Shown here: piece after piece, positions 789 through 19,700 of the stretch
Position numbering within the stretch: the first letter of the stretch is position 1
Layout: each line of letters begins with the position of its first letter
Source: Candidatus Lindowbacteria bacterium RIFCSPLOWO2_12_FULL_62_27
GTDB taxonomy: Bacteria > Lindowbacteria > 2-12-FULL-62-27
Length of the DNA stretch: 49,605 nt
NCBI GenBank assembly: GCA_001784175.1
Contig: MFPR01000023.1
Location: 1 to 49,605, forward strand
Direction of reading: 5' to 3'
Translations under genes and position numbers: made by a program
The notes under the pieces: generated by a model
The model's input: the letters and a program-made list of their open reading frames with translations, nothing else
What the model was told of the DNA's origin: nothing
Databases searched by the model: none

Positions 789-3700
789 ATGAGGCTACTT
801 GTGTTTTTTTTATCTATAAAAACCAATAAGAGTTTCAGGGCCGCCGGATTTTTTACGAAATTTTCCGTTTGCCATCCTTTCTTCAGGCTGCTTCTGAAGA
901 CCACACAGATCGGTGTACTGACGGCTTTGTCCCTTGCGATCTTGGTCCAATCTTCCGCCGCGCTGGTTGGCGAGGGTGGGGACCTGAACCTGATTCAGAG
1001 CAACTGGACGGGCGGCGGGGACACGACTCGGGGGACGATCAGCAGTGTCGACTATGAGATCGTCACGACGGTCGGGTATATCGGCGGGGATACGGTCCTG
1101 AGCACCGCGACGCAGGAGACCGCCTTCACGGGCTTTTCGGCGACGCTGAATGCGCCGTTTCCGGACACTTACAAACTTCTCGAAATCACCGCGCCGGCCA
1201 CGGGGCATGAGACGAAGGTCGCGACGATCGTGATCTCCGGCACCAGCGTCCTTTCCATCAGCGACTCGATCATTGCCGTCGTGGACGGCGTGGAGGTCGA
1301 CACGAGCACGACCGACACGAGCGGCTCGTGGACGATCAGCTCCGTGTTGCTGAACGGCACGGACGACGATCTGATGGTGAAGATTCGTGACAAACAGACC
1401 GGCGAGATCCGCGCGCAGGACACGATCACAGTCACCTACGACGGCATCGCTCCCAAAGTCACCGCGATTGCGGACACGTCCGTCAAAAACGGTTCGAACA
1501 AGGGCCAGGTCGCCGCCACCGCCACCTTTTACATCGTCGACACGGGCGCCGGATTCAACGGCACCGGCTCCTGCACGCTCTACTGGCACTTCGACAGCGG
1601 GACCAACATCAATTTCACGGCCGTGGAGCCGAGCGGCTCTCCGGGCACGTACGTGATCGAGGGCACGATCCCGAACCCGGGCGTCGACACGAAAGTTGGA
1701 TTTTGGTGGGGCTGTCATGACGACGCTTTGAACATCATGACCGCGTCGTCTCTGACGCCGAAATATCTTGAATCCGATCCGGGGACGTACACGATCAAGG
1801 CGCCCGCGGCGGCCTCCGGAAATATGATCGCCGACACGCTCGTGATTTACGGGATCATCGACAGTTTCGACGCGACGACGTCTATTGAAGGCGTCATCCT
1901 GTATAATCCGACCGACAGGGCGTTCGATTTGAACGGTTATTCGATTCAGGGGTCCAACGAAAACGACGCGAGCGGATACGTCACTTTCGCGTCCGGGGAT
2001 ACGATTGCCGCCTTTGGATATTTTCTCGTTACGAGTTCGGCGGCAACCGATGCGGACAAAACGATGCCCGATGAGATTACGGATCCTGCCGGCGATTCGG
2101 TGGCGATCCATACCGCCACCGGAGCTCGAGTAGATCTCGTGGGAAATGGGGCCGCCACAGAATACGAGGGAACGGCTCCTACGGCCATGGCAACCAGCAA
2201 TGATGCTCTCATTCGGAAACCCTCTTACAATTTTGTCGGGCATGGACTCAGGCCGGCCGGGGGAGGCGGCGGGATGATCGACACCGACAACAACGCGAGC
2301 AACCTGATGGATGACACGACCCAAAACGGCAACGTGGCATGGCCGAATCGGAATAAGGGCATCACCGACCGGCTGGTGTTTGCCTGTACGGCTCCGACGA
2401 CCGCGGCGCAGAGCGCCAACTTCGGGCTGTCCTGCACTGCGGTGGTTCGATGGAAAGATGTCACGTCTCCGGATTCTGTGGCGAGGGCCTACACGGGATC
2501 GAGCGCTTGGGGAACGATCACGAGCGATGCGGGCACGGTCAACGGTCTGGGCGCCGACAGCTCCTTCACTAACGGCGTTCTCAACAATTATCAACTCAAC
2601 ATCAGCGCCACGCTCGGGACGGTGAGGATCACGATCGCGGACGCATACTGCACCGGGTACGTGGACGTCTACATCAACGCGTCCACGAACGACACCGTGA
2701 CGTTCGACGTGGCGTCGTCCGGCGCGACGCACGAGACCACCGCGGCCTCGGCGACGCTCTCGGGCAACACCGCCGCCGCGTCCGGCGATTCGGTCCAGAT
2801 TTACATCGACAACGTCGCCACCGATTCGCACGTTCTGACCGCCAACGGCGTCTGGAGCATCGTGAACGTGGACTTCAAGGACAAGACCGGCGAGAGCGTG
2901 GCCGCCTACGCGTTTGACGGCGGCGTTTTTCTCGGCGCCGACACGATCACGGTCCACTACGATGCCACCAAACCCCGGATCACGAAAATCGGGGACACCA
3001 CCATCGCGGACGGCGGCACGACCGCGGCCAGCGAGACGATGTTTTTCTACGTCTTTGACACAGGCACCGGCTTCAACAGCGCCGGAGGCTGTACCCTCTA
3101 CTGGCACGTGGACAGCGGCGCCAACACGAACTGGGCGGTGGCGACGGAAAACGACAGCGGCGGCACGGCGACGATCGAGGCGATGATTCCGGTGAGCACG
3201 TTCAATCCTCTCGTCGACACCAAAGTGGGGTTCTGGTGGGTGTGCCGGGACGATCTCGGGAACCTCATGGACTCGGCGTCGCTGTCGCCGTCCTACACCG
3301 ACGCGCGCCCGGGCACGTTCACGGTGGACGTCGCGAGCGTCCGGGACGTGATCATCAGCGAGATCATGTGGGATGGCGACAACAGCCAGGGCGATATGGA
3401 GTATGTGGAACTCTACAACCGCACCGGCGCGAGCGTCAGTCTGAACGGTTGGCGGCTGAGGGACGGTCATGGCACCGGTTCAACCGGATTTGACCTTCGA
3501 TTCGGCGCGGCGGACTCGATCCCCGCCTATTCCTACTACGTGATCTACCAAACGGGCGACGGCGACATCGGCGGCGCGGCGTTTACGGATATCTCAAGTC
3601 ACTTCGACACCACGCACAACGACTGGGACGGAGACAATGACTTGCTGCGCGCCGGCGATTCGCTGACGCTTTTCATCAACTCCACCGGCGTCGAGATCGA

Positions 3701-6700
3701 CTCGGCGCCGTTCTTGACGGGCTGGCCGGCCGGCGGATGGACGGGCACGAACGACACGAACGGCGTTTCGATGGAACGCAAAATGTCCGGCCTCAATTAC
3801 GCGACGGTCGGGTCGGGCGACTCCGAGGCCCAGTGGGACAGCCACAACATGCGCCACGGCAACGGCCGGCCGCATGGCACGCCCGGGCATGTGAACAGCA
3901 TCAACATTCCGAGCCTCACGTCGATCACGCCGAGGAGCCCGGTCGCGTCGTCCGGTCGCGGCAAGTGGACCCTGACGGTGACCAACGGCCGGGACGATTT
4001 TTCAGGCGGCCGCGTCGTTCTCAAAGTCCCGGCCGGCTGGAGCCAGCCGACCAGCACGGCCAACGATCCGGGGTATACGACCGTTTCGGTGAGCAACGGC
4101 ACGATCAACACGACGACGTTTTCCGGGGACAGCATGATCGTCGACCTGACCGCGTGGACGGCCCAGAGTGGAACGCTGGAAATCATCTACGGCGACAATG
4201 CCGGGGGCCGGAACTCTCTGGCGCGGGTGGCGTCGACCTCGAGCGCGACGCCGGTAGAGTTTCAGCTTTTTTATGACACCAGCGGCTCAGTCGTCACCAT
4301 GGCTGGCGACAGCGGGGTGTTTGGCGTGAAATCCGAGACGCTGCCGGTGGTTGAGTATGCCGCGGCGAATCTCCTGGGCGGGGCGATTGACACGAATCCG
4401 TCCGGCAATCCACGCAGTTTCATGAATTCGGAATATACGCTGACCATCACGCACACGGACACGCTGGGGCGCGTCATTTACGGCGCGCACGATTCGGTGA
4501 CGATCAAACCGTTTCTGACTTCGGCGACCGCCGCCTCGGATTCGCACGTGCACGAGGACGCCACGTTTGCCGGTTTCTACGATCCGACGAACAACGACAC
4601 GATTCAGGTCGGCGGGTGGACCGACGAGTACGGCCGGTTTCAGGCAACGCTCCATGTGAGTTCGATCGCCGGCAATGACGCGCAGCTCAACGAATTTCGC
4701 GTGTCATGGGGGGACAACAACAATTCCTCGACGGTTTCCGATTCCGCGCGGTTGCCGGTCCCGGTCATCAATGAAGTCGCGTGGGACGGTTCGGTGGAGT
4801 ATATCGAAGTCTACAACCCGACGCACCAGGTTCAAACGCTGACAGGATTCCAGATCATTTCGGTGAGCAACCTTACGGACAGCGCGACGGCGACCATAGA
4901 AGTCGGCGCCAGCGGCGGCTTCAATAGTGTCTTCAGCTTAAATCCATTTCACTATGTCGTCTTCGTGGATACCGCGGGCACGGCGCCGGACAGTGGCGGG
5001 CAGACCACGGATTCTCGAGAGATCGACGCAGTGACCTTGACCGACAACCCGGCTGAAACGCTGGTTCTACGAAATGCTTCAGCGTCATTTACGGATATGA
5101 TGGGCATTCTCGGCAACAGCGGATACTTCAATGACGCAGACAAAAGCGGGGGACCCGATGAGGGCGTCAGTTATTCGCTGGAGCGTGTCTTCACCAACCG
5201 GTCGGGCAACCAATCCGACAACTGGGCCAGTTCCGACTCGGCGCCCGGCGGAACCGGCGGAGCGGGGACATCCGGTCGGCCGAACGCGAAGTCTCTCTAC
5301 GCCACCCAAGTCGACCGTCTGGACACCGTCATCGGGCGGCCGAACGGGAGCACGATGGACACGGCCCGGGTCACGCTGATTCTGAAGATCGCATCCGGCG
5401 ACACGCAGCCGAACCAGCAGATCGGTGTGCAGGGCGCGATCGCCGAAGGGCCGCGGCACGGGGATTCGAGCTGGTATCTCGTCACGCCGTCCGTGACGAA
5501 CAGTCAGGGCACGGCGGCGATCACGATCTCGGCCAACGGCAACAACACCTCCGGCACGGTTCACATCCGGATCCGGCAGCCCTACGGGGTGACCGACAGC
5601 GCCTACATCGTATTCGACCGCGGCGAAAGCTTCGCCTACATCTTCCAGTCCAGCGAAACGAACATCTCCGACACGTCGGCGAAGAACGCGCTGGTGGTGT
5701 TCGTCAGTTTCAAGGACACCATTTCCGGCATCGACACGAGCATCATGCCGCAGTACCGCTGGAAGGTCGGCGTGAGCGGGACCTACACATCGTACGCGAA
5801 CATGACGTACCACACGGGCGACACGTATCTGGCCCGGATCGACATTTCGCCGGACACCTGGTCCAAAACCCCGCACGACACGATCTACTGGCAATACCTC
5901 TGGCGCGACCGCGCCGGGAACTGGGACACGTCGCCGACCGACGACTCGCGCACGGCCGACTACATCGACAACACGAAGGCTTTCGACACGATTTCCTCGC
6001 CGTCGGCGGGCGACACGCTGAGCGGCTCGAACGCGCTGGTGCGGCTCCTGATCGGCGATGGGGCACGGGACTACTGCACGATCACGGTCAAGTACGACAC
6101 GTACGCCTCAGGGCTCTGGACCAACGCGACGCTGGTGTCGGGATCGGACACCAAAACCAACCTGCGGACGACCCAGGGCGGCGACACGCTGGATTTGCGG
6201 TGGAACACCACGACCGATCTTTCCGGCACCACCATCGTGAGCGTCCGCCTGCGGGTCGAAATCTACGACGGATTCGACACGCGGACGGACACCACGAGCA
6301 ATTTCGGGATCGCCAACGCGACCGGCGCGAACGACCCGCCCTCCGATACGATCGCGCTTCCGGCGGACGGCGAGACCTACGCGGGGAGCGTGACCGTGCG
6401 ATTTTTCCTGGTCGACCCGGACAACCAGTACTGCACGGTGTCGATCCGGTATGCAAAGGACAGCGGGACGGCGTGGTTCCCCGCGACGATCACGGGATCG
6501 ACGAGCAACCTGTACGCGCCGTCGGCCGGGGACACGTTCACAGTCACGTGGAATTCCAAGACCGACCTCGTGGACACGAAAATCGCGAGCGTCAAACTCA
6601 GCGTCACGCCGAGCGACGGCACCGACACCGGCCCCGCCGACACCACGCTGGTGTTCGGGATCGACAATCAGAAACCGGGCGTGATCGACACGGTGACGGC

Positions 6701-7316
6701 CGCGGCGGACGTGGAGGGATCGGACACGGGGGTATACGTGTCGTGGAGCACGTCGTCCGCGTCAGATTCGAAGGGGTACAACATCTACCGATTCAGCGGG
6801 ACGGACAGCGCGCAGTCGTCGAAGGTAAACGTGGGCGTGATCACGGACACGTTCGGTTTCAAGGACTCGTCGGCGGTGCAGGGCGACACGAATTTCTATT
6901 ACGTCGTCGTCGTCGACACCTACGACAACCAGAGCGACAGCTCGATGTCGGCGGAGGCGCCGAACATCGATGTGGTGAAGGACGTGGGGGATTCGAGCAA
7001 CGCGAAGCGTCTGCGGCCCGGCGACACGGTTTCATTTTTGATCACGGTGCGGAACAACGGATTCGCGCCCGCGCGCGGTATCGTGCTGTACGACTACGTT
7101 CCGCAATTTTCCACCTACACCGAATCGGCGGCGGCCACCAGCCTCGAAAGCAACTGGACGATCGAATACCGCGTGGACGGCGCCGGCGGCTCGGACGTGT
7201 GGCAATCCGCGCTGTCCGACACCGCCACCATGCTCCGGTTCACCCGGTCGGCCCGGCTGGAACCGAAGGTTGCGACGGCGTCGGACACGCTGAGGATCAA
7301 GGTGAAAATCCAATAA
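789..7316 (+). CDS. Large secreted multidomain surface protein: three lamin-tail-like domains, Ig-like/FN3 modules, C-terminal DUF11-like domain
   Basis: 2175-aa ORF; hydrophobic signal-like stretch ending VQSSAA; LTD motifs VIISEIMWD..EYVELYN..SLNGWRL, PVINEVAWD..EYIEVYN and a degenerate EGVILYNPT..DLNGYSI; internal duplication (CTLYWH.DSG...VDTKVGFWW twice); C-terminal PNIDVVK..RPGDTVSFLITVRNNG..LYDYVP. Exact start uncertain (no clear SD, long n-region). Confidence 0.85.
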   Translation: MRLLVFFLSIKTNKSFRAAGFFTKFSVCHPFFRLLLKTTQIGVLTALSLAILVQSSAALVGEGGDLNLIQSNWTGGGDTTRGTISSVDYEIVTTVGYIGGDTVLSTATQETAFTGFSATLNAPFPDTYKLLEITAPATGHETKVATIVISGTSVLSISDSIIAVVDGVEVDTSTTDTSGSWTISSVLLNGTDDDLMVKIRDKQTGEIRAQDTITVTYDGIAPKVTAIADTSVKNGSNKGQVAATATFYIVDTGAGFNGTGSCTLYWHFDSGTNINFTAVEPSGSPGTYVIEGTIPNPGVDTKVGFWWGCHDDALNIMTASSLTPKYLESDPGTYTIKAPAAASGNMIADTLVIYGIIDSFDATTSIEGVILYNPTDRAFDLNGYSIQGSNENDASGYVTFASGDTIAAFGYFLVTSSAATDADKTMPDEITDPAGDSVAIHTATGARVDLVGNGAATEYEGTAPTAMATSNDALIRKPSYNFVGHGLRPAGGGGGMIDTDNNASNLMDDTTQNGNVAWPNRNKGITDRLVFACTAPTTAAQSANFGLSCTAVVRWKDVTSPDSVARAYTGSSAWGTITSDAGTVNGLGADSSFTNGVLNNYQLNISATLGTVRITIADAYCTGYVDVYINASTNDTVTFDVASSGATHETTAASATLSGNTAAASGDSVQIYIDNVATDSHVLTANGVWSIVNVDFKDKTGESVAAYAFDGGVFLGADTITVHYDATKPRITKIGDTTIADGGTTAASETMFFYVFDTGTGFNSAGGCTLYWHVDSGANTNWAVATENDSGGTATIEAMIPVSTFNPLVDTKVGFWWVCRDDLGNLMDSASLSPSYTDARPGTFTVDVASVRDVIISEIMWDGDNSQGDMEYVELYNRTGASVSLNGWRLRDGHGTGSTGFDLRFGAADSIPAYSYYVIYQTGDGDIGGAAFTDISSHFDTTHNDWDGDNDLLRAGDSLTLFINSTGVEIDSAPFLTGWPAGGWTGTNDTNGVSMERKMSGLNYATVGSGDSEAQWDSHNMRHGNGRPHGTPGHVNSINIPSLTSITPRSPVASSGRGKWTLTVTNGRDDFSGGRVVLKVPAGWSQPTSTANDPGYTTVSVSNGTINTTTFSGDSMIVDLTAWTAQSGTLEIIYGDNAGGRNSLARVASTSSATPVEFQLFYDTSGSVVTMAGDSGVFGVKSETLPVVEYAAANLLGGAIDTNPSGNPRSFMNSEYTLTITHTDTLGRVIYGAHDSVTIKPFLTSATAASDSHVHEDATFAGFYDPTNNDTIQVGGWTDEYGRFQATLHVSSIAGNDAQLNEFRVSWGDNNNSSTVSDSARLPVPVINEVAWDGSVEYIEVYNPTHQVQTLTGFQIISVSNLTDSATATIEVGASGGFNSVFSLNPFHYVVFVDTAGTAPDSGGQTTDSREIDAVTLTDNPAETLVLRNASASFTDMMGILGNSGYFNDADKSGGPDEGVSYSLERVFTNRSGNQSDNWASSDSAPGGTGGAGTSGRPNAKSLYATQVDRLDTVIGRPNGSTMDTARVTLILKIASGDTQPNQQIGVQGAIAEGPRHGDSSWYLVTPSVTNSQGTAAITISANGNNTSGTVHIRIRQPYGVTDSAYIVFDRGESFAYIFQSSETNISDTSAKNALVVFVSFKDTISGIDTSIMPQYRWKVGVSGTYTSYANMTYHTGDTYLARIDISPDTWSKTPHDTIYWQYLWRDRAGNWDTSPTDDSRTADYIDNTKAFDTISSPSAGDTLSGSNALVRLLIGDGARDYCTITVKYDTYASGLWTNATLVSGSDTKTNLRTTQGGDTLDLRWNTTTDLSGTTIVSVRLRVEIYDGFDTRTDTTSNFGIANATGANDPPSDTIALPADGETYAGSVTVRFFLVDPDNQYCTVSIRYAKDSGTAWFPATITGSTSNLYAPSAGDTFTVTWNSKTDLVDTKIASVKLSVTPSDGTDTGPADTTLVFGIDNQKPGVIDTVTAAADVEGSDTGVYVSWSTSSASDSKGYNIYRFSGTDSAQSSKVNVGVITDTFGFKDSSAVQGDTNFYYVVVVDTYDNQSDSSMSAEAPNIDVVKDVGDSSNAKRLRPGDTVSFLITVRNNGFAPARGIVLYDYVPQFSTYTESAAATSLESNWTIEYRVDGAGGSDVWQSALSDTATMLRFTRSARLEPKVATASDTLRIKVKIQ

Positions 7317-7330
7317 TGAGGAGGTCATCG

Positions 7331-8449
7331 GTGAGACACATCATGGCAATGAAGGCGTACATCGTACTGGGACTTCTAGGACTTCTGACCCCGGCTTACG
7401 GTCTGAGTTTTGACACCATTTACGAAACGCGTGTCGACACGCACGGCGTCTTGATCGTGTGGCAGACCGACACGGCTTCGAACGGCAACATCGAATATGG
7501 CCTCGGGACGGCCGACGCGAACCAGATGTCGATCGAGATGACGATGGCCCTGCAGCATCAGACGTCCATTTACGGGCTTCTCGAGGGCGAGGACTACATG
7601 TTCCGCATCCGCGCCCGGAGCCGGACCGGCGGACAGGCGCAAAGCCCGTGGCACCGGTTTCGGACGCTCGGGATACCGGCCCCGAAGATCCTGGAGGTTG
7701 CCGTGGTGGAGGCGACGCCGGAAGGCGGCACGCTGGTGTGGCGGTCCAACATCCCGACGCGGGGCACGTTCGAGTGCGGCTACGACACGTCCTACGGATT
7801 TCAACAGACCGACGACCGCTACGGGGCCGCCCACGAAGTGATCGTGAAGCGGTTCAATCCGCGCAAGACCATTCACTACCGTGTCCGGGCCGTGGACGAG
7901 CGAGGCCTGGAGGCGCCGGAGCACGCCGGCACGTTTGTGACGGCGGAACGCAACATCGCGGTGGGCGCGAAGGTAACGGGAACATTCACGCGGAACGTCG
8001 AGCCGTCCTACATCAAGGACACCCCGCCGATTCTGGACCGGGTGACCGACGGAGGGCTGGACTACTACACGGGGATGGCGTCGTCCGGCGATCCGAAAGA
8101 CGCGGACCAGTGGGTGGAAATCGATCTCGGAAAAATCGCATTCGTGTCGGACATCGTGACGATGTGGTGGCAGCTTGCGTATCCGAAAAAATTCTCCGTG
8201 AAACTCAGCCTGAACCGGGAAACCTGGCGGGCGCTGGGGGACACGTATGACGCCTCGACGGGCCAGACCGCGAAGAGCCGCAGCGGCGATCCGCTCTGGG
8301 AGCATTTCGCGCAAGCGGGCTCGGTCCTGGCGCGATACGTTCGGATCGACATTCCGCAGGGCGCGCCGTACGAGCGTCGGTTTCCGAAATTCAACTACGT
8401 CACGTTGTTCGAGCTGAAGGTTTATCCGCCGGAGGAAAAACATGATTAG
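7331..8449 (+). CDS. Secreted protein with two FN3-like domains and an F5/8 type C (discoidin) domain
   Basis: SD GAGGAGGT at 7318-7325 before GTG 7331 (alternative ATGs 7316/7343/7349); signal peptide ..LGLLGLLTPAYG; W.T......IEYG...H...GL....Y.FRIRA pattern twice; RNIA..VTDG..QWVEIDLG..ARYVRI..ELKVY discoidin signature. Confidence 0.85.
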   Translation: MRHIMAMKAYIVLGLLGLLTPAYGLSFDTIYETRVDTHGVLIVWQTDTASNGNIEYGLGTADANQMSIEMTMALQHQTSIYGLLEGEDYMFRIRARSRTGGQAQSPWHRFRTLGIPAPKILEVAVVEATPEGGTLVWRSNIPTRGTFECGYDTSYGFQQTDDRYGAAHEVIVKRFNPRKTIHYRVRAVDERGLEAPEHAGTFVTAERNIAVGAKVTGTFTRNVEPSYIKDTPPILDRVTDGGLDYYTGMASSGDPKDADQWVEIDLGKIAFVSDIVTMWWQLAYPKKFSVKLSLNRETWRALGDTYDASTGQTAKSRSGDPLWEHFAQAGSVLARYVRIDIPQGAPYERRFPKFNYVTLFELKVYPPEEKHD

Positions 8450-8487
8450 AGCATCCAGTCAACAAAGAGCGGTACTTCCAACCCTAT

Positions 8488-8511
8488 CGTCTGCCGTTCG
8501 GGCGGGCGTTT
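8488..8511 (+). promoter_or_regulatory. Intercistronic hairpin upstream of the 388-aa gene (weak terminator or mRNA processing/stability stem)
   Basis: CGTCTGCC-GTTCG-GGCGGGCG stem with two G-U pairs, followed by only three T. Confidence 0.4.
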
Positions 8512-8555
8512 CCATAGATCGCACAAACTCTTGCCTTTTGAAAGGAGGCAGATTT

Positions 8556-9722
8556 ATGTCACGTCAAAGTTTAAGCGTACTCGTGACGCTGCTTCTGATC
8601 GGCCTGTCGGCGATGCCGGCACTGGCCGTAGGAACCAGCGGCGACACGGCGTACATCTCGAATGGATTTTTCACCTACACCGACACGGTGCCCAACAGTT
8701 ACGGGCGTCTGTCGGTGGCGTACATGAAATCCCAGAACAGCGCGGATTCGAAGTACAAGGGTCCGTCTGCCGGCGACTCGGTGATTGTCGACACTGCGTG
8801 GGACATGACTCAGATTTACAATCTGACTCAGACGTCCGGCGCGGCGGGCGAGACCGTGTCGTTTGTACACTGGATTGAGAACATCGGAAATGCGACGGCT
8901 CGGATCGATTTCGAGACGCGGTTCATCACCGATGCCAACCTCAAGGACACGGACTGGGGGAGGGAGCGGTACACGATCTTCGGCGACGCCGACAAGGACA
9001 GCGCGGTCGACAACGGCGCCAATCGTGACACCACCTACATCCAGCTTCCCCCGGGAAGGTCCATCCAGATCATCGTGCAGGTGTCGATCCCTGACACGGC
9101 GGTGGATGGCGATTCGTCGCACATCATGCTGGCGGTGACGGACAACGCCGTCACGCTGGCGGATGGCGCCCAGGGCGACTCCTGGCAGGCCGGGACGATC
9201 CTGGCGAGCGGGGAGGACAGCCGCGACACGATGGTGGACACGGTGGTTGTTCAGGTCAAGGGACCGAACGTCATTGTGGAGAAGAACGTGTATGAGATGA
9301 CGGCCAACCGGTCTCGACCGGGTGACACCATTGTCTGCGACATCACGTTCGACAATGACGGTTCGGACTCTGCCCGGGGTCTTCAGATCATGGACGCGAT
9401 CCCGCAGTGGTCCTATTTCCAGAAGAACTCGGCAGAAAGCGGGATTTTTCTGGGCAACTCGGCGCAGACGCCGACTGCCACCGCCGACTCCGAGATCACC
9501 GTCCAGTATGACACGGACGCCGCCAGCATAAACGGCCGGGTGGAGTTCCTCGACACGTACGGCAACCACGCGGACACGAACAGGATCGTCACGGCGATCC
9601 GGTGGACGCTCACGACGTATGTCCGTGCCGGTGACGATGACGCGAACGGAACGGTCGAGTTTAACGACAACAACGCCACGGCGGACAACGGACGCGTGCA
9701 GTACCGCGTCGTCATCGAATAA
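8556..9722 (+). CDS. Secreted 388-aa DUF11-family protein, candidate major filament subunit
   Basis: Strong SD AAAGGAGG (8541-8548) before ATG 8556; 24-aa signal peptide ending PALA; mature N-terminus VGTSGDTAYISNGFFTY; central FVHWIENIGN domain; C-terminal VEK..RPGDTIVCDITFDNDG..IMDAIP DUF11-like domain. Confidence 0.85.
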   Translation: MSRQSLSVLVTLLLIGLSAMPALAVGTSGDTAYISNGFFTYTDTVPNSYGRLSVAYMKSQNSADSKYKGPSAGDSVIVDTAWDMTQIYNLTQTSGAAGETVSFVHWIENIGNATARIDFETRFITDANLKDTDWGRERYTIFGDADKDSAVDNGANRDTTYIQLPPGRSIQIIVQVSIPDTAVDGDSSHIMLAVTDNAVTLADGAQGDSWQAGTILASGEDSRDTMVDTVVVQVKGPNVIVEKNVYEMTANRSRPGDTIVCDITFDNDGSDSARGLQIMDAIPQWSYFQKNSAESGIFLGNSAQTPTATADSEITVQYDTDAASINGRVEFLDTYGNHADTNRIVTAIRWTLTTYVRAGDDDANGTVEFNDNNATADNGRVQYRVVIE

Positions 9723-9739
9723 GGACGGAGGAAAGCGAA

Positions 9740-10704
9740 GCGCCTGAACAGGGAAGACAAGTAAAGAATGCAAGGAAGTCCTGCGGGGCCTGTGGCCACA
9801 GGTCCTGCGGCGACGTGACATTGGCGGCACGGGGCAAGATCGAAACTCGAGATCGATCTTAAACCCACCGCCGGCCCACTCCTTTCGGGGAGCGGGCAGT
9901 CTCCTTTCGGCGGTGTCCGAACCGGTCCCATCCCGGTTGGACCCGTTATGTTGGAGACGTTCCTTGCAGGCAGGTCTTCCCAATCGGCGCGCGATGCGGA
10001 AGAGTCCGTTGTCGGGCGAGGTTGTCGTATGAGGGGAGGAGTCTGCCCCTGAAGCCTCTACCGGGAACGGGAATGCGGACCGAGTAGTCCGCGCCCGCTT
10101 CGCGTGTTTTCCTCCGAGGCCCGCGGTTTGTCCGCGGGCTATGGAGGAAGTCTTTCAGGCGCGATGATGTCGGCCTTGCGCTGACATCGATCGCACTCAT
10201 GGACCAACGGTCCGGAGGGCAACCTCCGCCGGGTCCTGAGGTGGTTCATGGTCCTCCGCAGGACGGCTTAAAGGGAGCCGGTCCACCCGACCGGCCGCCA
10301 GATCGACATGGCGGCAGCCGGGAGAAGGTTCCCAGGCCGGACAGCGGCGGGACTTCACCACCGACGGTACCTCGGCGGGGATGGCCCTGCGCCAACGGTC
10401 CTGGAGTCAGGCTCGTACCCCCGTCAGCCGCTCCGCCGCCCGAAAGGGTGCGCGCGGGGCCTGACCGGGAACAGCCGCCTCCGGGGAAGTTCATAGGTGA
10501 GCTTGGAGTAAAAGCTCCAAGGCAGATACCCAGGGAGACGAGTCCGCCCGGAACATTCGGGATTCGGGAAGGACCGGACTTTATCCGTCATTTCGGCCCC
10601 GTTCCTTTGGGTGAGGGGGAAGGACCGCCCCCAACGCGGGTTGGAGAAAATCCCATCCGGGGATTTTCTGAAATTGGAGCGTTGGGGACAGGACATCCGT
10701 GTCC
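9740..10704 (+). ncRNA. Candidate large (~1 kb) structured RNA, class unrecognised
   Basis: About twenty local and nested long-range helices visible by eye, many with G-U pairs on the + strand, and two GNRA tetraloops; no credible protein encoded. See findings. Confidence 0.6.
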
Positions 10705-10708
10705 GCCC

Positions 10709-13700
10709 ATGCGCGGCAGTGTGTTCCGGCGAATGACCGCGCTGTGGATGATGGTCTGCGCCGTGCTGGGTCTGTGGACGGCGCCCGCGCCGGCCGGCCA
10801 TGGGGATACGCACGCGCCCGTCAAGACGGTCATCACGTTTGATACGGTCACGGTGAAGTACATGTGGCCCCTGTGGACCAGCGCCGTGAATCATGACAGT
10901 GACGCTCGATATTCGAACAAGGACTACGAGACGGTCCAGCTTCTGTCGGCGGTCGACGTCACGACGAATCTGGAGACGGCCTACATCGGGCCGCGGGACA
11001 GTGTGATCTTCATAAGACATATTCGGAATCTTGGGAATGGATACGACACGTACCGGGTGCGCGGGGATTCGCAGCCGGGCGTGAATTTTGTCACCGGAAT
11101 CTTTTTGGACGCCGCCGACGGCGACAGCGTGTTTGACGGCAGTGACCCGCCGGCTGCGACGGCGGTGGTGGGCGCGCTCAAGGAGACGGTCGTGCTGGTG
11201 CGCGTCCAAGCGCCGCCAACCGCGGTGGACGGCCAGATCGACACGTTGCTTCTCTCTGCGACGTCCGACGCCGCCGTTCTGTCGGCGGACACCGTGACGC
11301 TGGTGCTGACGCTTGATTCTCAGCCGCCGACCGCCCCGAGCCTGCAGTCGCCGGCGGGCGGATTCGAAACGAACAGCCTGCGGCCGGCGTTCCGATGGGA
11401 CACGTCCGCCGACACGCTGGCCGGTCTGGCCTGGTACCGGTTCGAGCTGGACACGAGCGGCCTGTTCGTGAATCTCGTTCTGTCGGACACGCGGACCGAC
11501 ACGGCCTTCACGCCGGCCGCGGACATGTCCGCCGGCCGGTATTTCTGGCGCGTGCTCGCGGTCGATACGGTCGGCAATGTCAGCCGGTCGAATCCGGATT
11601 CGAACCGCCTCGTCATCGACACAAGCGCCGCCGTGTCGGCGGTCGGGCCGCCGGACGGTCACGAGACGAACGCGGCGGCGGTGCGGTTCGAATGGGCGTC
11701 GACCGAGGCGGAGACGTACACGTGGCAGTTGTCGAAGTCCGCGGCCTTCGCGACGATCGCCGACAGCGCGGTCGACACGCGGGTCACGAGCCTGAACCGG
11801 ACCCTGCCGGACCAGGACACGTACTTCTGGCGCGTGCTCGCGCGGGACACGGCCGGCAATTACGACACGACGGCCGTGCGCGCCCTCCTGCTGGACACCC
11901 TCGTCGGTCAGGTGAGCTTGACGGCGCCGGCCGACGGGCTTGAGACGCAGGCCGCGTCGGTCCCGATCCTGTGGTCCGCCGTGCCGGACAGCGTGGGGAT
12001 CGACTCGTATGCTGTGGAGGTCGCGAAGACCACGGCGTTTTCGGACGTGGTTTTCGCGGACACCGTCGACGGCGTATTCGCGACCGATACGGTCACCGGC
12101 TTGTACAACGACACGTACTTCTGGCGCGTCCGGGCCGTCGACGATCTCGGCAACAGCGGGGCGTATTCGGCCGCGCGCGGATTTGTGACCGACACCAGCG
12201 TCGCCCAAGTCAGCCCGGCCGGTCCGTCGGACGCGCACGAGACGACGAACGCGAGCGTGGTGGTGACCTGGACCGCCGTCGGGGATTCGGTAGGCATCGA
12301 CAGCTACGCGGTGGAGGCGTCGAAGAACGCTGGATTTGAGAGCCTGAGTTTTGTGGACACGGTCGACGGCGCGCTGACGGGCGATACGATCACGGGCCTG
12401 TACAACGACACGTACTATTGGCGCGTTCGGGCCGTCGATGTGCAGGGCAACGGCGGCGCGAACTCGGCGACGCGCGGGTTTGTGGTTGACACCCTCGCCG
12501 GCCAGGTGAATGTGTCGGGCCCGGCGGACGGCCACGAGACGACGAACGTGAACGTGGTCGTCACGTGGACCGCCCTCGCGGACTCGGTGGGGATCGACAG
12601 CTACGCAGTGGAGGCGTCGAAGAGCGCGGCGTTTGCGAGCGTCGCGTTTGCGGACACAGTCGACGGCGCGTTGACGGGCGATACGATCATGGGCCTGTAC
12701 AACGACACGTATTATTGGCGCGTGCGTGCCATCGACGATCTGGGGAACGCAGGCGCGAACTCGACGGCGCGAGGATTTGTGGTCGACACCCAGGTCGAAG
12801 CGGTGAGTGTGACGGCGCCGTCGGACGCGCACGAGACGACGAACGCGAGCGTAGTGGTGAGTTGGACGGCGGTGGGCGCCGACACGGTGGGGATCGACAG
12901 TTACGTCGTGGAGGCGTCGAAGACCGTCGCGTTTGCCGAGGTCGTGTTTGCGGATACGACCGACGGGACGAATACGACAGACACGATCACCGGTCTCTAC
13001 AATGACACGTATTACTGGCGCGTGCGCGCGGTCGACGATCTGGGGAACGCCGGCGCGAACTCGGCGACCCGGGGATTTGTGGCCGACACCCACGTGGGCC
13101 AGGTCAGCCTGTCGATGCCCGCGGACGGCCATGAGACGACGAGCGTGAGCGTGGTCGCCACGTGGACTGCGGTGGCGGATTCGGTGGGGATCGACAGCTA
13201 CGCGGTGGAGGCGTCGCCGAGCGCGGCGTTTTCGATCGTCGTGTTTGCGGATACGACCGACGGGACAACTACGGCAGATACGATCACCGGTCTGTACAAT
13301 GACACCTACTACTGGCGCGTCAGGGCGGTCGACGATCTTGGCAACGGCGGAGCGGTATCGACTGCCCGGGGCTTCGTGGTCGACACATCGATCGGACAGG
13401 TGAGCGTGACGGGTCCGACGGACGGACACGAGACGACCAACGCGAGCGTGGTGGTGACGTGGACTGCGGTGGCGGACTCGGTAGGGATCGACAGCTACGC
13501 GGTGGAGGCGTCGAAGAGCGCGGCGTTCGCCTCTGTCGTGTTTGCGGATACAACCGATGGGACGAATACGACGGATACAATCACCGGACTATACAACGAC
13601 ACATACTACTGGCGTGTCCGCGCGATCGACGAAGCCGGCAATGCCGGCGTCAACTCGGCGGCGCGCGGATTCGTGGTGGACACGGCAGTGGAGCAGGTCA

Positions 13701-16700
13701 GTCTGTCGTTGCCGGCGGATGGACACGACACGACGAATGCAAGCGTCGTCGTGAGCTGGGCGGCCGTTGGAGCGGACAGCGTCGGGATCGACAGTTACGT
13801 GGTGGAGGCGTCCAAGAGCGCGGCGTTCGCGGCGGTCGTGTTTGCGGACACGACCGATGGGGCGAATACGACCGACACGATCACGGGTCTGTACAATGAC
13901 ACGTACTACTGGCGCGTGCGGGCGATCGACGATCTGGGGAATGCCGGCGCAAACTCTGCCACGCACGGGTTTGTGGTCGACACAGCCGTCGGTCAAGTGA
14001 GTGCGACCGGCCCGGCCGACGGCCACGAGACGACGAACGTAAGCGTGGTCGTCACGTGGAGCGCGGTCGCGGACTCGGTGGGGATCGACAGCTACGCGGT
14101 GGAGGCGTCGAAAAGCGCGGTGTTCGCCGGCATGGCGTTTGCCGACACGGTGGAGGGCGCGCTGACGGGCGACACAGTAACGGGTCTGTACAATGACACG
14201 TACTTCTGGCGTGTCCGTGCGATCGACGATCTGGGCAACGGCGGCGCCTATTCGGCCGCCCGCGCCTTCGTTGTGGATACGTCCATCGAGCAGGTTGTGG
14301 CGGTGTCTCCGTCGGACGGGCACGAGACAACGAGCGCAAGTGTCGTGGTGAGCTGGACGGCGGTCGGCGCGGACAGTGTGGGGATCGACAGTTACGTGGT
14401 GGAGGCTTCGAAGTCGGCCGGATTTGTCGCGATCGTGTTTGTGGATACGACGGATGGGACGAATACGGCAGATACGATCACAGGCCTGTACAACGACACG
14501 TACTACTGGCGCGTGCGCGCGGTCGACGACGTGGGCAACATCAGCGCGAACTCATCGACCCGCGGATTTGTGGTGGATACGGCGGTCGCCCAAGTGAGCG
14601 TATCGAGTCCCGCCGCCGGGCATGAAACTACGAACGTGAGCGTCGTTGTTGCGTGGAGCGCGGCGTCGGATTCGGTCGGCATCGACAGCTACGCGGTGGA
14701 GGCGTCGAAGAGCACGGCGTTTGCCGATGTCGTGTTTGTGGATACGACCGATGGGACGAATGCGACAGATACGATCACTGGTCTGTACAATGACACCTAC
14801 TACTGGCGTGTCCGCGCGATCGACGATCTCGGAAACATCGGAGCGGTCTCGACCGCCCGGGGCTTCGTGGTCGACACGTCGATCGGACAGGTGAGCGTGA
14901 CGAGTCCGGCGGACGCGCACGAGACGACCAACGCGAGCGTGGGGGTGACGTGGAGCGCGGTGTCGGATTCTGTGGGAATTGACAGCTACGCGGTGGAGGC
15001 GTCGAAGAGCACGGCGTTTGCCGCGGTCGTGTTTGTGGATACGACCGATGGGACGAATACGACCGATACGATCACCGGGCTGTACAACGACACATACTAT
15101 TGGCGCGTGCGCGCGATCGACGATGTCGGTAACGTCGGCGCCGCCTCCGCAACCCGCGGGGTTTTGGTTGACAGCGGCGCCGGGCAGGTCGCGCTCGTGT
15201 CGCCCGCCACGAACTCGTCGACATCGGATTCCACGCCGACGCTCACGTGGGCCGCGCTGTCCGACAGCGTCGGGATCGATTCGTACGTGATCGAGGTGTC
15301 GCTCAGCGCTTCGTTTGCCTCCTTCGTGTTCACGGACACGGTAGACGGAACGCTGATAAGCGACACTCCGACAGCGCTGGCCGAATCTACGTATTACTGG
15401 CGCGTCCGGGCGATCGACCAGCTCGGGCAGGCCGGCCAGAATTCCGATTCCTTCATCTTCCGGATTGACACGGGCATCTCGCTGACCCTGACCAATCCGC
15501 CGGCCAATCACGACACCAACGCGGCCACCCTCCGGTTTGAATGGGACGCCGACGCCGACACCTTCACGTGGCAGCTTTCCAAGTCCTCGACGTTCGCGAC
15601 GATTTCCGACAGCGTCGTCGACACGCGCGTGACCAGCCTTGTCCGCACGTTGCCCGAGCCTGACACTTTCTACTGGCGCGTCATCGCCCGCGACACCGCC
15701 TCGAATTACGACACCGCCACCGGACGCCGGCTGATCCTGGACACGGCGGTCGAGCAGGTGACCGTGACCGCGCCGGCGGACGGCCACGAAACGACGAACG
15801 TGAGCGTGACGGTGAGCTGGACGGCGATCGGCGCCGACAGCGTCGGGATCGACAGCTACGTGGTGGAGGCATCGAAGTCGGTTGGATTCGCCGAGGTCGT
15901 GTTTGTGGATACAACGGATATGACGAATACGACAGATACGGTCACAGGCCTGTACAACGACACATACTTCTGGCGCGCGCGCGCGGTGGACAATGTTGGA
16001 AACGTGGGTGCGAATTCCACGGCACGCGGCTTCGTGGTCGACACGGCCGTGGGGCAAGTGAGCCTGGCGAGTCCGGCGGACGCGCACGAGACGACCAACG
16101 CGAGCGTGGGGGTGACGTGGAGCGCGGTGTCGGATTCGGTGGGGATCGACAGCTACGCGGTGGAGGCGTCGAAGGGCACGGCGTTTGCCGCAGTCGTGTT
16201 TGCGGATACGACCGATGGGACGAATACGGCAGATACGATCACCGGTCTGTACAACGACACATACTTCTGGCGCGTCCGCGCGGTCGACGATCTCGGAAAC
16301 ATCGGCGCGAACTCGGCCGCCCGCGGGTTCGTGGTCGACACGTCGATCGCGCAGGTGAGCGTGTCGAGTCCGGCGGACGCGCACGAGACGACCAACGCGA
16401 GCGTGGTGGTGACGTGGAGCGCGGTGTCGGATTCGGTGGGGATCGACAGCTACGCGGTGGAGGCGTCGAAGAGCTCGGCGTTCGCCTCGGTCGTGTTTGC
16501 GGATACGCCCGATGGGACGAATACGACAGATACGATCACGGGGCTGTACAATGACACGTACTACTGGCGCGTCCGCGCGATCGACGATGTGGGAAATGCG
16601 GGAGCGAATTCCACAGCGCGCGGCTTCGTGGTCGACACGGCCGTGGACCAGGTGGGTGCGGCCAGCCCGGCGGATGGCCACGAGACGACGAACGCGAGCG

Positions 16701-19700
16701 TGGTGGTGAGCTGGAGTGCGATAGGCGCGGACACGGTGGGGATCGATTCGTACGTGGTCGAGGCCGCGAAGAGCGCCGCGTTTGCGAGCGTGCTCTTTGC
16801 CGACAGCGTGGACGCGGGCCTGACGAGCGACACGATCACGGGCCTGTACAACGACACATACTTCTGGCGCGTCCGTGCGGTCGACGATCTGGGCAACGTC
16901 GGCGCCAACTCGACGGCCCGCGGGTTCGTGGTCGACACCGCGATCGCGCATGTAAGCGCGGCCGCGCCGGCGGATGGGCACGAGACGAACGCGACCCCCG
17001 TGCGTGTGTCGTGGTCCACCGCGAGCGACAGTGTTGGGATTGATTCGTATGCGGTGGAGGCGTCGAAGAGCACGGCGTTTGCCGCGGTCGTGTTTGTGGA
17101 TACGACAGATGGGACGAATACGACAGATACGATCACCGGACTGTACAACGACACATACTATTGGCGCGTGCGCGCCATCGACGATCTCGGCAACAGCGGC
17201 GCCTTCTCGACCGGCCGGGGATTCCTCATCGATACGGCGATCGGACAGGTCGTTCTTGCGACGCCGGCGAGCTACACGATGACGACCGACTCGACGCCCG
17301 CCCTGACGTGGACCGCGCTGACCGACAGTGCCGGCATCGATTCGTATGTGGTGGAAGTGTCGGCCAGCCCGGCGTTCGCGGCGCTGTCGTTCGCCGACAC
17401 CGTCGACGGTACGAAGGCCGCCGACACGACAGCCGTGCTTGCCGATTCCACCTATTACTGGCGCGTGCGCGCGATCGATGCGGTCGGAAACGTCGGCGCC
17501 AATTCCGAATCGTCCGTCCTGCGCGTCGATACCGGCGTGAGCGTGTCGCTGAGCAGTCCGGCGGACGGCCACGAAACGAACAGCGCGACTGTGACGTTTG
17601 CCTGGTCGTCCGCCGATGCGGAGACCTACACGTGGCAGCTTTCCAAGAGCGCCGCGTTCACGACCGTGATCGACAGCGTGGTCGACTCCACCGCGACGGA
17701 AGTTCGCCGGACGCTGCCCGATCAGGACACATTCTTCTGGCGCGTCATCGCGAGGGACACGGTCGGAAACGTCGACACGACCATCCGGCGGATCGTGATC
17801 CTCGACACCCGCGTTGATTCGGTGACGGTGGTTGGCCCCGAAAACGGGCACGAAACCAACGTCGCATACCCGGCGCTGTCCTGGACCGTGCCGGCCGACA
17901 GCGTGGGGATCGACAGTTTCGTAGTCGAGGTTTCCAAGAGCATCGCCTTCACGAGCCTGGCGCTCGCCGACACGATCGACGGCACGCGGACCGGCGACAC
18001 GCTGATCGGCGTGTACAACGACACCTATTACTGGCGCGTGCGGGCCATCGATCGCGTGGGCAACGTGGGACCCAACTCCGACACGCGAGGATTCCTCGTG
18101 GATACGGCGGTCGGAACCGTGACGCTCGTCTCGCCCGTGAGCGGCACGGTGACCAGTGACACGACGCCGACCCTGAGCTGGAACGCGCCGGCCGACAGCG
18201 TGGGCATCGATTCGTACGCGATTGAAGTGTCCGGAAACCTGTCGTTCGCCGCCCTCGTGTTCGCGGACACCGTCGACGGCGCCCTGACCGCCGACACCGT
18301 GACGGCGCTGACCGATTCGGCGTATTACTGGCGCGTGCGCGCCGTGGACGATATGGGGAACTTCGGCCCGTCCTCGGACACGTTCACGCTGTCCATCGAC
18401 ACCGGCTTGAAGGTCACGCTCACCGGCCCGGCCGACGGCCATGAAACGAATTCGGCGGCGGTCCGGTTCTCGTGGACGGCGGACGCCGACACCTTTACCT
18501 GGCAGCTTTCCAAGACCGCTGCGTTCACGACGATCGTCGACAGCGCCGTCGATACGAACGTGTCGAGCCTCGTGCGGAGTCTGCCGCAGGAGGACACGTT
18601 CTACTGGCGGGTGATCGCGAAGGACACGGTATCGAATTCTGACACGAGCGCCGCCCGCGGCCTGATCGTCGACACGTCGGTCCGGCAGGTGACCGCGGCC
18701 GCGCCTGCCGCCGGCCACGAGACGGCGAATACGCAGCCGGTGACGGCATGGAGCGCCGTGGCGGACAGCGTGGGGATCGACAGCTACGCGGTGGAAGTCT
18801 CCAAGGCCGCGGCCTTCACGAGCGTAATCTTTGCCGACACGATCGATGGCGCGATCCTCAGCGACACGCTGACGGGTCTGTACAACGACACGTATTTCTG
18901 GCGCGTGCGCGCGATCGATGACCTGGGCAACGTTGGCCTGCCCTCCGACTCGCGGGGCATCCTCATCGACACCTTCGCGCCGAAGGTCACGCTCTCGGCG
19001 CCGGCGGACCTCCACGAAACAAACAACGCCACGCCGGTGGTGGGCTGGACTGCGGTGTCGGACAGCGCCGGGGTCGACAGCTATGTAGTGGAAGCCGCAA
19101 AGAACGCGGCCTTCACAAGCCTCGTCTTCGCCGATACGGTGGCCGGCGCGCGCACGAGCGATACGCTGGGGAATCTGTACAACGACACCTATTACTGGCG
19201 TGTCCGCGCGATCGATGTGCTCGGAAACGTCGGCCAGAATTCGGACACGCGCAAGATTCTGCTCGACACGCAGGGCGCCTCGGTCAATCTGGCCGGCCCG
19301 GCGAATGGCTCGGTGACGACGGACACGACGCCGACCTTCTCATGGCAGGCGGTCAGCCAGGTCGGGATCGACAGTTTCGTGCTGATGGTATCGCGCGCCT
19401 CGACCTTCCAGCCGCTGGACTTCGTCGACACGGTCGACGGCGCGATCATGAGCGACACGGCAACGATCCTGGTGGAGGACACCTACTACTGGAAAGTCAT
19501 CGCGATCGACAACGCCGGCAACACGCCGGCCTCCGCCGCATGGACGCTCCTTGTCGACACGGCGTCTCCGACCGCCCCGACGCTGGTCGCGCCGGCCTAC
19601 GGGCATGAGACGTCGAACCTGAAGCCGTACTTCACGTGGACGACGTCCTCCGACAAGGTCAGCGGCGTCTATGCCTACCGGCTCGAGATTTCGACCGATT

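Follow-up and report, generated by a model that had tools for sequence, protein, structure and literature searches.

The gap of 1 kb that precedes a giant surface-protein gene in a candidate-phylum bacterium is filled by a strongly folded, conserved and uncatalogued piece of putative mRNA, of which only the first half is non-coding. The gap lies in a window of 49,605 nt (the whole stretch of DNA that was analyzed, from contig MFPR01000023.1 of Candidatus Lindowbacteria bacterium RIFCSPLOWO2_12_FULL_62_27) and falls into three parts, all given here on the + strand: a non-coding multi-domain RNA of 476 nt (9723–10198) that is single-copy, syntenic and favored in the sense orientation; a structured region within a conserved open frame (10199–10624); and a MITE-like palindrome of 78 nt (10625–10702) that is multi-copy and missing from a close strain. 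A first-pass annotation had interpreted the complete kilobase as a large ncRNA. That interpretation is supported in part. What stands of it is a conserved structure, unusually large and outside Rfam, at the level of RNA and on the sense strand; its extension over the whole 1 kb falls, as the 10199–10708 frame is open in all three orthologues with net indels between conserved blocks in multiples of three, which in comparative form is a refuting outcome that the annotation itself had named, and the last 78 nt are mobile.

Position of the Interval in the Operon

The structured region begins at the base following the TAA stop codon (9720–9722) of an upstream gene of 426 aa (8442–9722), and the orthologues of this gene in two relatives end likewise. 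Downstream of the interval lies a gene for a giant surface protein with fn3/Ig repeats (10709–20536), the ATG of which is directly 5′ of a signal-peptide-like segment; the gene caller of the protein database placed the start of the giant gene at 10709. Because the upstream genes overlap (8442 versus 8449), 9723–10709 is the sole long gap in the operon. The first-pass labels "shaft" and "anchor" for the two flanking genes found no support: the upstream protein matches DUF11 only below threshold (21.4 bits versus 24.6) and the downstream gene encodes fn3/Ig-like repeats.

Folding Energy and Searches against Known Families

On the + strand the 987 nt of 9723–10709 fold at −533.2 kcal/mol, compared with −439.6 ± 9.0 for 20 shuffles (z = −10.4), and on the minus strand at −485.8 compared with −411.5 (z = −10.6, 20 shuffles). 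Control windows of the same length from the same stretch (n = 5) gave z values from −2.21 to +1.05, those of 476 nt (n = 25) a mean of −0.43 (sd 0.88, minimum −2.76), and those of 300 nt (n = 91) a mean of −0.64 (sd 1.36), and the comparison with shuffles proposed as a check in the first-pass annotation therefore came out in its favor. One window elsewhere in the 300-nt scan (17701–18000) has a z of −4.98. The 5′ half reaches −8.7 in the window and −9.3 and −9.0 in the relatives G002 and G003, the three sequences coming from three genera, and the 3′ half reaches −5.1, −6.9 and −5.8 in the window and the two orthologues. The generic mark of a structured RNA, a folding energy well under that of dinucleotide shuffles, is thus found in several orthologues and in both halves.

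The minus strand of the 5′ half folds about as well as the + strand in the window (z = −8.2) and much less well in the orthologues (−3.6 in G002 and −3.2 in G003). The MFE structure of this half in the window contains 16 G-U pairs among 163 on the + strand and 6 among 156 on the minus strand, and the corresponding numbers of G-U pairs for the window, G002 and G003 are 16, 27 and 22 compared with 6, 18 and 7. The first-pass observation that mismatches are mostly G-U on the + strand is borne out by these counts together with the orthologue z values.

Covariance models from Rfam 15, including those for GOLLD, ROOL, OLE, HEARO, group I/II introns, riboswitches and ribozymes, gave no hits at gathering score over the whole window, in agreement with the earlier statement that no signature of a known RNA is visible. 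At E ≤ 10 over 9600–10850, four hits were obtained with 13.3–17.6 bits compared with thresholds of 37–60.

Architecture of the Non-Coding Half

An SD-like GGAGGAA (9727–9733) lies 5 nt past the stop codon and is kept in all three orthologues. Its predicted CCUCC partner differs with the context that is folded, and the assignment of a sequestration or juxtaposition role to this GGAGGA failed on that variation. The long-range helix P1 (9740–9748/10154–10162) closes a multi-branched domain of 423 nt with a pair probability of 0.86–0.92 in the window and of 0.94 in three contexts in G002; in G003 its arms read CACCTGG/CCAGGTG, with two positions changed on both sides, and the probability ranges from 0.19 to 0.98 by context. 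Within P1 is a P2/P3 subdomain (9751–9981), in which P2 (9751–9758/9974–9981) and P3 (9769–9777/9960–9968) have pair probabilities of 0.96–1.00 and enclose hairpins at 9778–9814, 9822–9873, 9874–9897 (UUCG loop) and 9899–9958, the second of which contains the AAGATCGA/TCGATCTT hairpin (9836–9860). Of the non-coding half, the S2 domain (9986–10108) is what all three orthologues retain. It is closed by Pa (9986–9994/10100–10108, pair probability 0.92–1.00) and Pb (9996–9999/10095–10098) and carries the arm Pc/Pd (10005–10071) and a hairpin at 10075–10092. The S3 hairpin of the MFE helix list (TTCCTCCG..GGCCCGCGG with CCGCGGGCT..TGGAGGAA, 10109–10149) occupies a hypervariable position at which both orthologues have another hairpin, and a further predicted hairpin, GATGTCGGC/GCTGACATC (10166–10188), lies between P1 and the conserved ATG. 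A self-complementary hairpin loop, CUCGAG, is kept between the window and G002. All eight long-range pairs reported in the first-pass annotation are present, seven as perfect complements and one (10198–10206/10242–10250) with a single G-U, and the local stems that it named are found in the MFE helix list.

Conservation among Orthologues

The phylum is represented by four genomes in the collection searched, namely the window's own genome (G000) and the relatives G001, G002 and G003. In three of the four the element is single-copy and syntenic, located directly after the stop codon of the upstream orthologue and ahead of the orthologue of the giant gene, and a BLAST search over 41 genomes found three that match, own genome counted. 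G001, which is 88% complete, lacks the RNA and also has no gene that is clearly orthologous to the giant one. A protein-guided scan of genome contigs recovered G002 and G003 only, and an exact-pattern scan of metagenome contigs recovered seven stretches: the window, one G002-like contig, and five with different spacing that were set aside uninspected as probable chance matches. A further 22 matches to the S2 motif in viral contigs are regarded as chance because none of them is followed by the next conserved block; the pattern used does not fit the motif in the form that it has in the window.

Among orthologues the non-coding multi-domain structure spans 476–718 nt. P1, P2, P3 and Pa are kept, changes on both sides of a pair are seen in Pa, Pb, P1, P3, H5 and H8, and four hairpins are swapped between genera for unrelated hairpins at the same places. 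G003 is without the whole P2/P3 subdomain (230 nt). At one paralogous locus of the own genome (G000:C19) the leader is reduced to a remnant of ~110 nt, and at two paralogous loci of G003 (C105 and C68) a similar leader was not found.

MAFFT puts the 3′ strand of P1 in the wrong place when it aligns the 5′ half, and pairs in this half were therefore counted from each orthologue folded alone. Of the 81 MFE pairs in the P2/P3 subdomain of the window, 55 are the same in G002, five are kept with a change on one side and five with changes on both sides, seven are gapped and nine are broken; eight of the broken pairs lie in or beside the hairpins 9778–9814 and 9874–9897, both of which are replaced in G002. 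Over the three orthologues, positions 3 and 7 of Pa read C-G, U-A and U-G, position 4 of Pb reads G-C, G-C and C-G, and in S2 the separately folded orthologues each pair the same conserved 5′ strand. In the 3′ half, for which the consensus structure came from the same three-sequence alignment that was used for counting, 89.2% of cells are paired, and changes on both sides are seen in 16 pairs, compared with 6.9 ± 1.9 in 500 shuffles (none of which reaches 16) and 2–5 in slid controls; with three orthologues such covariation counts are small and below R-scape-grade statistics. The close strain has seven listed substitutions in 9723–10198, five of which affect bases that the MFE structure leaves unpaired; the A>G change at 9878 gives G-C where the window has an A-C mismatch, and a change at 9822 breaks a terminal U-G. 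The same strain has 98 other letters in place of the 84 nt of 10101–10184.

An Open Frame That Is Also Structured

A Pro/Gly/Arg-rich open frame extends from the conserved ATG at 10199 to 10708, in the same register as the giant gene. It contains no stop in any of the three orthologues, compared with 4–10 in each other frame, and the net indels between conserved blocks of the window and G002 (24, 9, 6, 18, 6 and 78) are all multiples of three, in contrast to 2 of the 27 gaps in the 5′ half. In its openness and its frame-preserving indels the region therefore behaves as coding sequence. Codon usage and GC3, on the other hand, are unlike those of the genome's genes and do not mark it as coding: GC by codon position is 0.75/0.65/0.57, compared with a GC3 of 0.78–0.85 in three real genes. 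Synonymous sites differ less than those of the flanking genes (pS 0.44 versus 0.65), and pN/pS from protein-guided alignment is 0.59–0.72, similar to the 0.47–0.65 of the flanking genes. A Pfam search with the 170-aa extension found no family, and the sole match in a protein-database search was the window's own product, called from 10709.

Predicted structure continues in this frame. A CGGAGG-GCAA-CCTCCG hairpin with a GNRA loop (10213–10228) is identical in G002 and absent in G003. A conserved long hairpin (10390–10485), in which 10400–10406 pairs with 10479–10485, consists of helices 12–14 with 30 pairs, four of them with changes on both sides; the 17 nt of 10390–10406 are invariant in all three orthologues, synonymous sites included, and the apical hairpin has a distinct sequence in each. 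The AGTCCG/CGGACT helix (10541–10580) encloses a hairpin that differs in sequence between the window and G002. At the end of the region is an SD-like GAGGGGGAAGGA (10613–10624), which is located 6 nt before ATG 10709 in the strain without the mobile element and is kept in G002, where CTG stands at the place of ATG 10709 and neither ATG nor GTG is found near the signal peptide. The stretch 10199–10624 is probably translated, either as a leader or as an N-terminal extension, while being constrained as RNA. The extension may not be the main product, because no SD precedes ATG 10199 and ATG 10709 has one in the empty-site strain.

A Mobile Palindrome before the Giant Gene

The last 78 nt (10625–10702) form a palindrome with stems 10629–10637/10679–10687 and 10645–10654/10660–10669, and direct CCGCCC repeats are found at 10625–10630 and 10703–10708. 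Three copies are present in the own genome, at least 11 in G003 and one in G002 outside the locus; the G003 gap holds two copies, and one copy is in frame within a leuD-like ORF. The contig of the close strain jumps from 10624 to 10703, omitting exactly 78 nt, with six letters that fit both sides. Being short, palindromic, multi-copy, flanked by a direct repeat and polymorphic for presence, 10625–10702 has all the characteristics of a MITE-like element.

The rest of the interval differs in this regard. In the 4.39-Mb genome 9723–10623 has no second copy, recurrence being limited to query positions 902–985, and in the relatives it has no copy outside the syntenic site; the interval as a whole is therefore not a REP/MITE cluster. 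Accordingly, the first-pass claim that the stems are non-repetitive is correct for 9723–10623 and incorrect for the last hairpin (10624–10707), which is a dispersed repeat.

Proposed Role and Alternatives

We favor, with moderate confidence, the reading that the interval forms a composite leader, acting in cis, of the mRNA for the giant protein, located on the + strand within the operon transcript and not a separate RNA gene. The structure most likely belongs to the same transcript as the flanking genes. In the first part (9723–10198), closure of P1 would make the upstream stop codon with its GGAGGA and the ATG at 10199 flank one compact domain. In the second part (10199–10624) the structure would go on while ribosomes also read the frame of the giant gene, yielding either a translated leader or a Pro-rich N-terminal extension before the signal peptide. 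The third part (10625–10702) is inserted between the SD-like motif and ATG 10709, both of which its hairpin could hold within reach. The folded domain would determine how much giant protein is made compared with the products of the upstream genes, which are tightly coupled. At the downstream start or starts it would gate the access of ribosomes or their re-initiation, and it might in addition be a processing or stability barrier separating the two halves of the mRNA. The specific gating model is weak because the partner of the GGAGGA is unstable across folding contexts, and much of the RNA would be dispensable because G003 does without the P2/P3 subdomain and the paralogous locus manages with ~110 nt. 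We infer that a cis role of the "attenuator/processing element" type, one of the two options of the first-pass annotation, is the best reading.

The other option, a free-standing large non-coding RNA gene akin in kind to OLE, GOLLD and ROOL, whose product would be transcribed or processed separately and would work in trans or as an RNA-only assembly, appears unlikely. A multi-domain non-coding structure of 476–718 nt with UUCG and GNRA loops, a conserved self-complementary CUCGAG loop and no matching Rfam family is what such a gene might look like, and known large bacterial RNAs of such size form homo-oligomers (PMC12286853). However, a scan of 7000–11500 found no promoter-like sites, and its four terminators are at chance level (3.0 expected). 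Moreover, the element starts one base past a stop codon, runs into a frame-conserved ORF and is always tied to one gene pair, and its 230-nt subdomain is missing in G003 and only a remnant is present at the paralogous locus.

A bolder version of the cis-acting leader is that the P1-closed domain of 0.4–0.65 kb represents a new class of large ornate RNA working inside mRNA. Its fold would put the upstream stop codon (with GGAGGA) beside the SD-less ATG of a surface protein of 3,400 residues, a hand-over or gating of ribosomes would then span half a kilobase of RNA, and the fold would extend into a translated leader of rare codons that is constrained as RNA and as frame at once. We regard this as a speculative proposal that is unlikely to hold.

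It is quite improbable that the structure has no function and consists of nested selfish palindromes (MITE/REP-like) beside an ordinary Pro-rich extension, its stability being a by-product of DNA palindromes and CCN/GGN-rich codons. The last 78 nt are indeed such an element, strain-polymorphic and present twice in the G003 gap, but 9723–10623 has no second copy in the genome or off synteny in the relatives. Variable hairpins are exchanged wholesale between genera, and the close strain has replaced 84 nt with 98, whereas P1 and Pa, both long-range helices, are kept through changes that are compensatory or preserve G-U pairing, and the strain substitutions avoid paired bases. Although both strands fold equally well in the window, G002 and G003 show a strong preference for the + strand. 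The frame has changed less at its synonymous sites than the flanking genes have at theirs, and the shuffles preserve dinucleotides and so control for richness in CC and GG.

A self-cleaving or RNase-targeted module that cuts the operon transcript before the giant gene and gives the two halves different half-lives would agree with all structural evidence, with a location between cistrons of different size and with a compact P1-closed domain that has stable hairpins on either side, able in principle to shield the ends created by the cut, but we consider it very improbable, as known ribozyme families give no match in Rfam even at E ≤ 10 (9600–10850) and as it leaves the kept-open frame from 10199 unexplained.

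At about 0.5 kb or more, conserved RNA structures are a rarity in bacteria, and every new one has so far been informative. The element described here comes from a candidate phylum with four genomes in the collection searched and matches no catalogued family, it has a defined regulatory position in the sole long gap of an operon for very large surface proteins, and it overlaps an open frame that is under RNA-like rather than codon-like constraint. It thus offers a concrete case for the interplay of mRNA structure over long distances with the starts of translation and with small mobile hairpins. If it were only a stability or processing spacer, its kind would be ordinary and its size unusual.

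Comparison with Known Systems

REPs are short, multi-copy, DNA-palindromic intercistronic elements, whereas the core described here is single-copy, 476 nt long and strand-biased and has long-range helices. Stable hairpins between cistrons, such as REPs and stem-loop stabilizers, could determine how strongly the genes before and after them are expressed relative to each other. Rickettsia palindromic elements insert in frame into genes. Only 10625–10702 resembles these elements and MITEs, as it is a short multi-copy palindrome with a 6-nt direct repeat, a presence/absence polymorphism and an in-frame copy in a leuD-like ORF; unlike the Rickettsia elements, it belongs to a different sequence family and to an uncultivated phylum.

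In genes 38 and 25 of phage T4, a structure between SD and AUG restores functional spacing (PMC3014915). The T4 structures span about 20–30 nt, whereas the inserts considered here are 78 nt and 420–650 nt. The arrangement at the 3′ end of the interval is similar to these split sites, in that the 78-nt palindrome separates GAGGGGGAAGGA from ATG 10709 and the spacing at the empty site is 6 nt. By analogy, the P1-closed domain between GGAGGAA 9727 and ATG 10199 may have a T4-like role, with the qualification that the pairing context of the GGAGGA is unstable.

The large bacterial RNAs OLE, GOLLD, ROOL and HEARO differ from the element in that it matches none of them in sequence or structure, is embedded between and within coding sequences of one operon instead of standing alone, and has only three known representatives. 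It is like these RNAs (Rfam; PMC12286853) in being non-coding over about 0.5–0.7 kb and multi-domain, with UUCG/GNRA loops and variable peripheral hairpins.

Position and Distribution of the Structured Gap

The window forms contig C23 of a 4.39 Mb, 94%-complete genome, and the 987-nt gap at 9723–10709 that holds the structured stretch is the sole long gap in its + strand gene row. This row comprises a gene for an LTD/DUF11 protein of 2175 aa (789–7316), a gene whose end is at 8449, a gene of 426 aa with a DUF11 match below threshold (8442–9722), and a giant open frame of 3445 codons with fn3/Ig-like repeats (10199–20536); we found no measurable basis for the names "shaft" and "anchor" previously given to the genes that flank the gap. 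Genome-wide, dozens of open frames of 2,000–9,000 codons have a common fn3/Ig-like module, and a 400-aa query gave 252 matches within the genome.

In the collection searched, the phylum is represented by only four genomes, all from one family. A BLAST search with the 987 nt against 41 genomes matched three including the genome itself. The remaining two, G002 and G003, each represent a different genus within this family and carry the homologous stretch at the same position, directly 3' of the 426-aa gene's orthologue and 5' of that of the giant gene. A metagenome contig (L029) provides the G002-type sequence without its run of N, and no further homologues were found in metagenome, genome, and viral collections. 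At a paralogous gene pair on contig C19 of the same genome, only a remnant of ~110 nt is present, which retains both arms of the closing helix P1 and a single motif 3' of it. Short gaps of unrelated sequence occupy this place at two more paralogous loci.

Folding of the Gap

All eight long-range arm pairs proposed in the first-pass annotation were recovered at their positions, seven as perfect complements and one with a G-U pair, and the local stems are present in the MFE structure. The folding energy of 9723–10709 is −533.2 kcal/mol on the + strand (shuffles −439.6 ± 9.0; z −10.4) and −485.8 kcal/mol on the − strand (shuffles −411.5; z −10.6), and the + strand value lies far below both shuffles and control windows from the same DNA. 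Five 987-nt controls gave z values of −2.2 to +1.05, twenty-five 476-nt controls a mean of −0.43 (sd 0.88, minimum −2.76), and ninety-one 300-nt controls a mean of −0.64 (sd 1.36). A further 300-nt window, 17701–18000, reached −4.98, a value like that of the gap's 3' half; it is located in the repeated fn3/Ig module region of the giant gene. No Rfam model matched at its gathering score, and the four matches at E ≤ 10 were all at chance level. The observation of dense structure, free of known RNA signatures, stands.

Part 1 Is a Probable Noncoding, Multidomain RNA

The first part of the gap (9723–10198) has stops in all three forward frames. Its z values on the + and − strands are −8.7 and −8.2 in the window, −9.3 and −3.6 in G002, and −9.0 and −3.2 in G003, with 16 and 6, 27 and 18, and 22 and 7 G-U pairs, respectively; the structure is therefore an RNA-level property of the sense strand. 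The orthologues have a common architecture in which P1 (9740–48/10154–62) closes a domain containing P2/P3 and their four hairpins, the second domain, S2 (9986–10108), and a hairpin S3, with an additional hairpin 5' of a conserved ATG. In the window and G002, the pairing probability of helices P1, P2, P3, and Pa is 0.86–1.00 in any context folded; for P1 of G003 a competing helix is predicted. The hairpin at 9836–9860 (AAGATCGA-AACTCGAGA-TCGATCTT) does not differ between the window and G002, and its loop contains a self-complementary CUCGAG that is a possible kissing-loop site.

When each orthologue was folded alone, the conserved 5' strand of S2 paired with a 3' strand 113–190 nt away in otherwise unalignable sequence. 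Positions 3 and 7 of Pa vary as C-G, U-A, and U-G across the three orthologues, position 4 of helix Pb as G-C, G-C, and C-G, and P1 of G003 differs from that of the window at two positions, with both sides changed. Among the 81 window pairs in 9723–9984, 55 are identical in G002, 5 are kept with one side changed, 5 are kept with both sides changed, 9 are broken (8 of them in or adjoining two hairpins that are swapped for different ones in G002), and 7 are gapped. Across the three sequences, such retention and paired changes suggest that pairing is under selection. DNA contigs from two runs of another study represent a close strain with seven listed differences in part 1, from 12 in the contig piece. 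Five of the seven fall on MFE-unpaired bases, one converts an A-C mismatch within the UUCG hairpin to G-C, and one disrupts a terminal U-G. In this strain 10101–10184 is swapped for 98 other letters, and G003 is without the entire P2/P3 subdomain, which argues against a strict need for the whole domain.

Part 2 Is Structured and in Frame

Part 2 (10199–10624) likewise folds more stably than its shuffles, with z values of −5.1, −6.9, and −5.8 in the three orthologues. Of its alignment cells, 89.2% are paired (the alignment was rated reliable), and 16 pairs are changed on both sides, compared with 6.9 ± 1.9 in shuffles (0/500 reach this) and 2–5 in slid controls, for three sequences with the structure taken from the same alignment. 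The giant-gene frame from the conserved ATG (10199) has no stops over 600–783 nt in all three orthologues, versus 4–10 in each of the other two frames. Net length differences between nucleotide-conserved blocks of the window and G002 are multiples of three (24, 9, 6, 18, 6, and 78 nt), compared with only 2 of 27 gaps in part 1. Near the G002 signal peptide there is no ATG or GTG, and CTG stands at the position of the window ATG 10709. Several features speak against ordinary coding: the GC3 of the frame is 0.57 versus 0.78–0.85 in real genes, ATG 10199 is without an SD, the frame matches no protein family, and the protein-database gene call begins at 10709. Conservation at synonymous sites exceeds that in flanking genes (pS 0.44 vs. 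0.65), and one 17-nt stretch containing five synonymous positions does not vary. We read part 2 as translated, or at least kept translatable, with its sequence held mainly by RNA structure. The G003 leader (L022, contig C35, minus strand) also contains simple repeats, (GGATTTC)n and (GGGAGAAA)n, at about 3960–4010 and 3700–3735, and the long frame stays open through both.

Part 3 Is a Mobile Palindrome

The stems had been described as nonrepetitive, which does not hold for the last hairpin: 10625–10702 is a dispersed palindrome. The genome of the window has three copies of it, G003 has eleven or more, and G002 has a single copy, away from this locus. On the close-strain contig 10624 is joined directly to 10703, and six letters (CCGCCC) fit both sides, as in a target-site duplication. 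At this empty site an SD-like GAGGGGGAAGGA precedes ATG 10709 by six bases, and the window has the element hairpin between the two. T4 genes 38 and 25 demonstrate that structure between SD and start can work (PMC3014915). The element keeps the frame because it is 78 nt long.

Another copy of 78–84 nt (~1504–1584 of L003 1139–1717, contig C1 of the same genome) lies in frame in a leuD-like (3-isopropylmalate dehydratase small subunit) ORF, adding 27 codons and no stop, which resembles the behavior of Rickettsia palindromic elements. A copy on contig C4 (~1501–1584 of L002 1478–2206) adjoins a start codon, like that in the window: it lies right where an ORF for a small His/Pro/Glu-rich secreted protein begins or, alternatively, just 5' of an internal ATG ahead of the ORF's hydrophobic segment. 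The G003 gap has two copies (L022, about 3866–3958 and 4358–4440), one of them at the window's relative site, 3' of the SD-like motif; this shared site means that the element either inserted more than once at a favored target or is an old insertion that G002 and the close strain have lost. A second short hairpin, cattcccgcgaaagcgggaatccag, at 108–135 of the window has an exact copy in another genus (about 7312–7336 of L054, contig C68 of G003) and probably represents a further family of dispersed palindromes.

A Probable Cis-Acting Leader Ahead of the Giant Gene

The gap most likely forms part of the operon mRNA and acts in cis as a leader for the giant gene, because it starts right after a stop codon, has a long-range closing helix and a conserved ATG followed by a structured, frame-kept stretch, and occurs at one gene pair. 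Such a leader would restrict or gate the access of ribosomes to the giant gene in comparison with the upstream genes, which overlap and are tightly coupled, and might also act as a stability or processing barrier. The predicted partner of the conserved GGAGGA at 9727 varies with the context folded, and this motif may be either sequestered or presented. A free-standing form of the large ncRNA proposed in the first-pass annotation stays as a rival, as do a pile of selfish palindromes and a self-cleaving module; no one of the three accounts for frame conservation and covarying long-range helices jointly.

Support comes from three sequences, and confidence is limited accordingly. With no Rfam family match and no homologue beyond one family of an uncultivated phylum, the element is new relative to Rfam, the literature having been consulted for comparison classes. 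Its kind, a structured mRNA leader or intercistronic element, is known; its size, multidomain build, and overlap with a probably translated frame are unusual.
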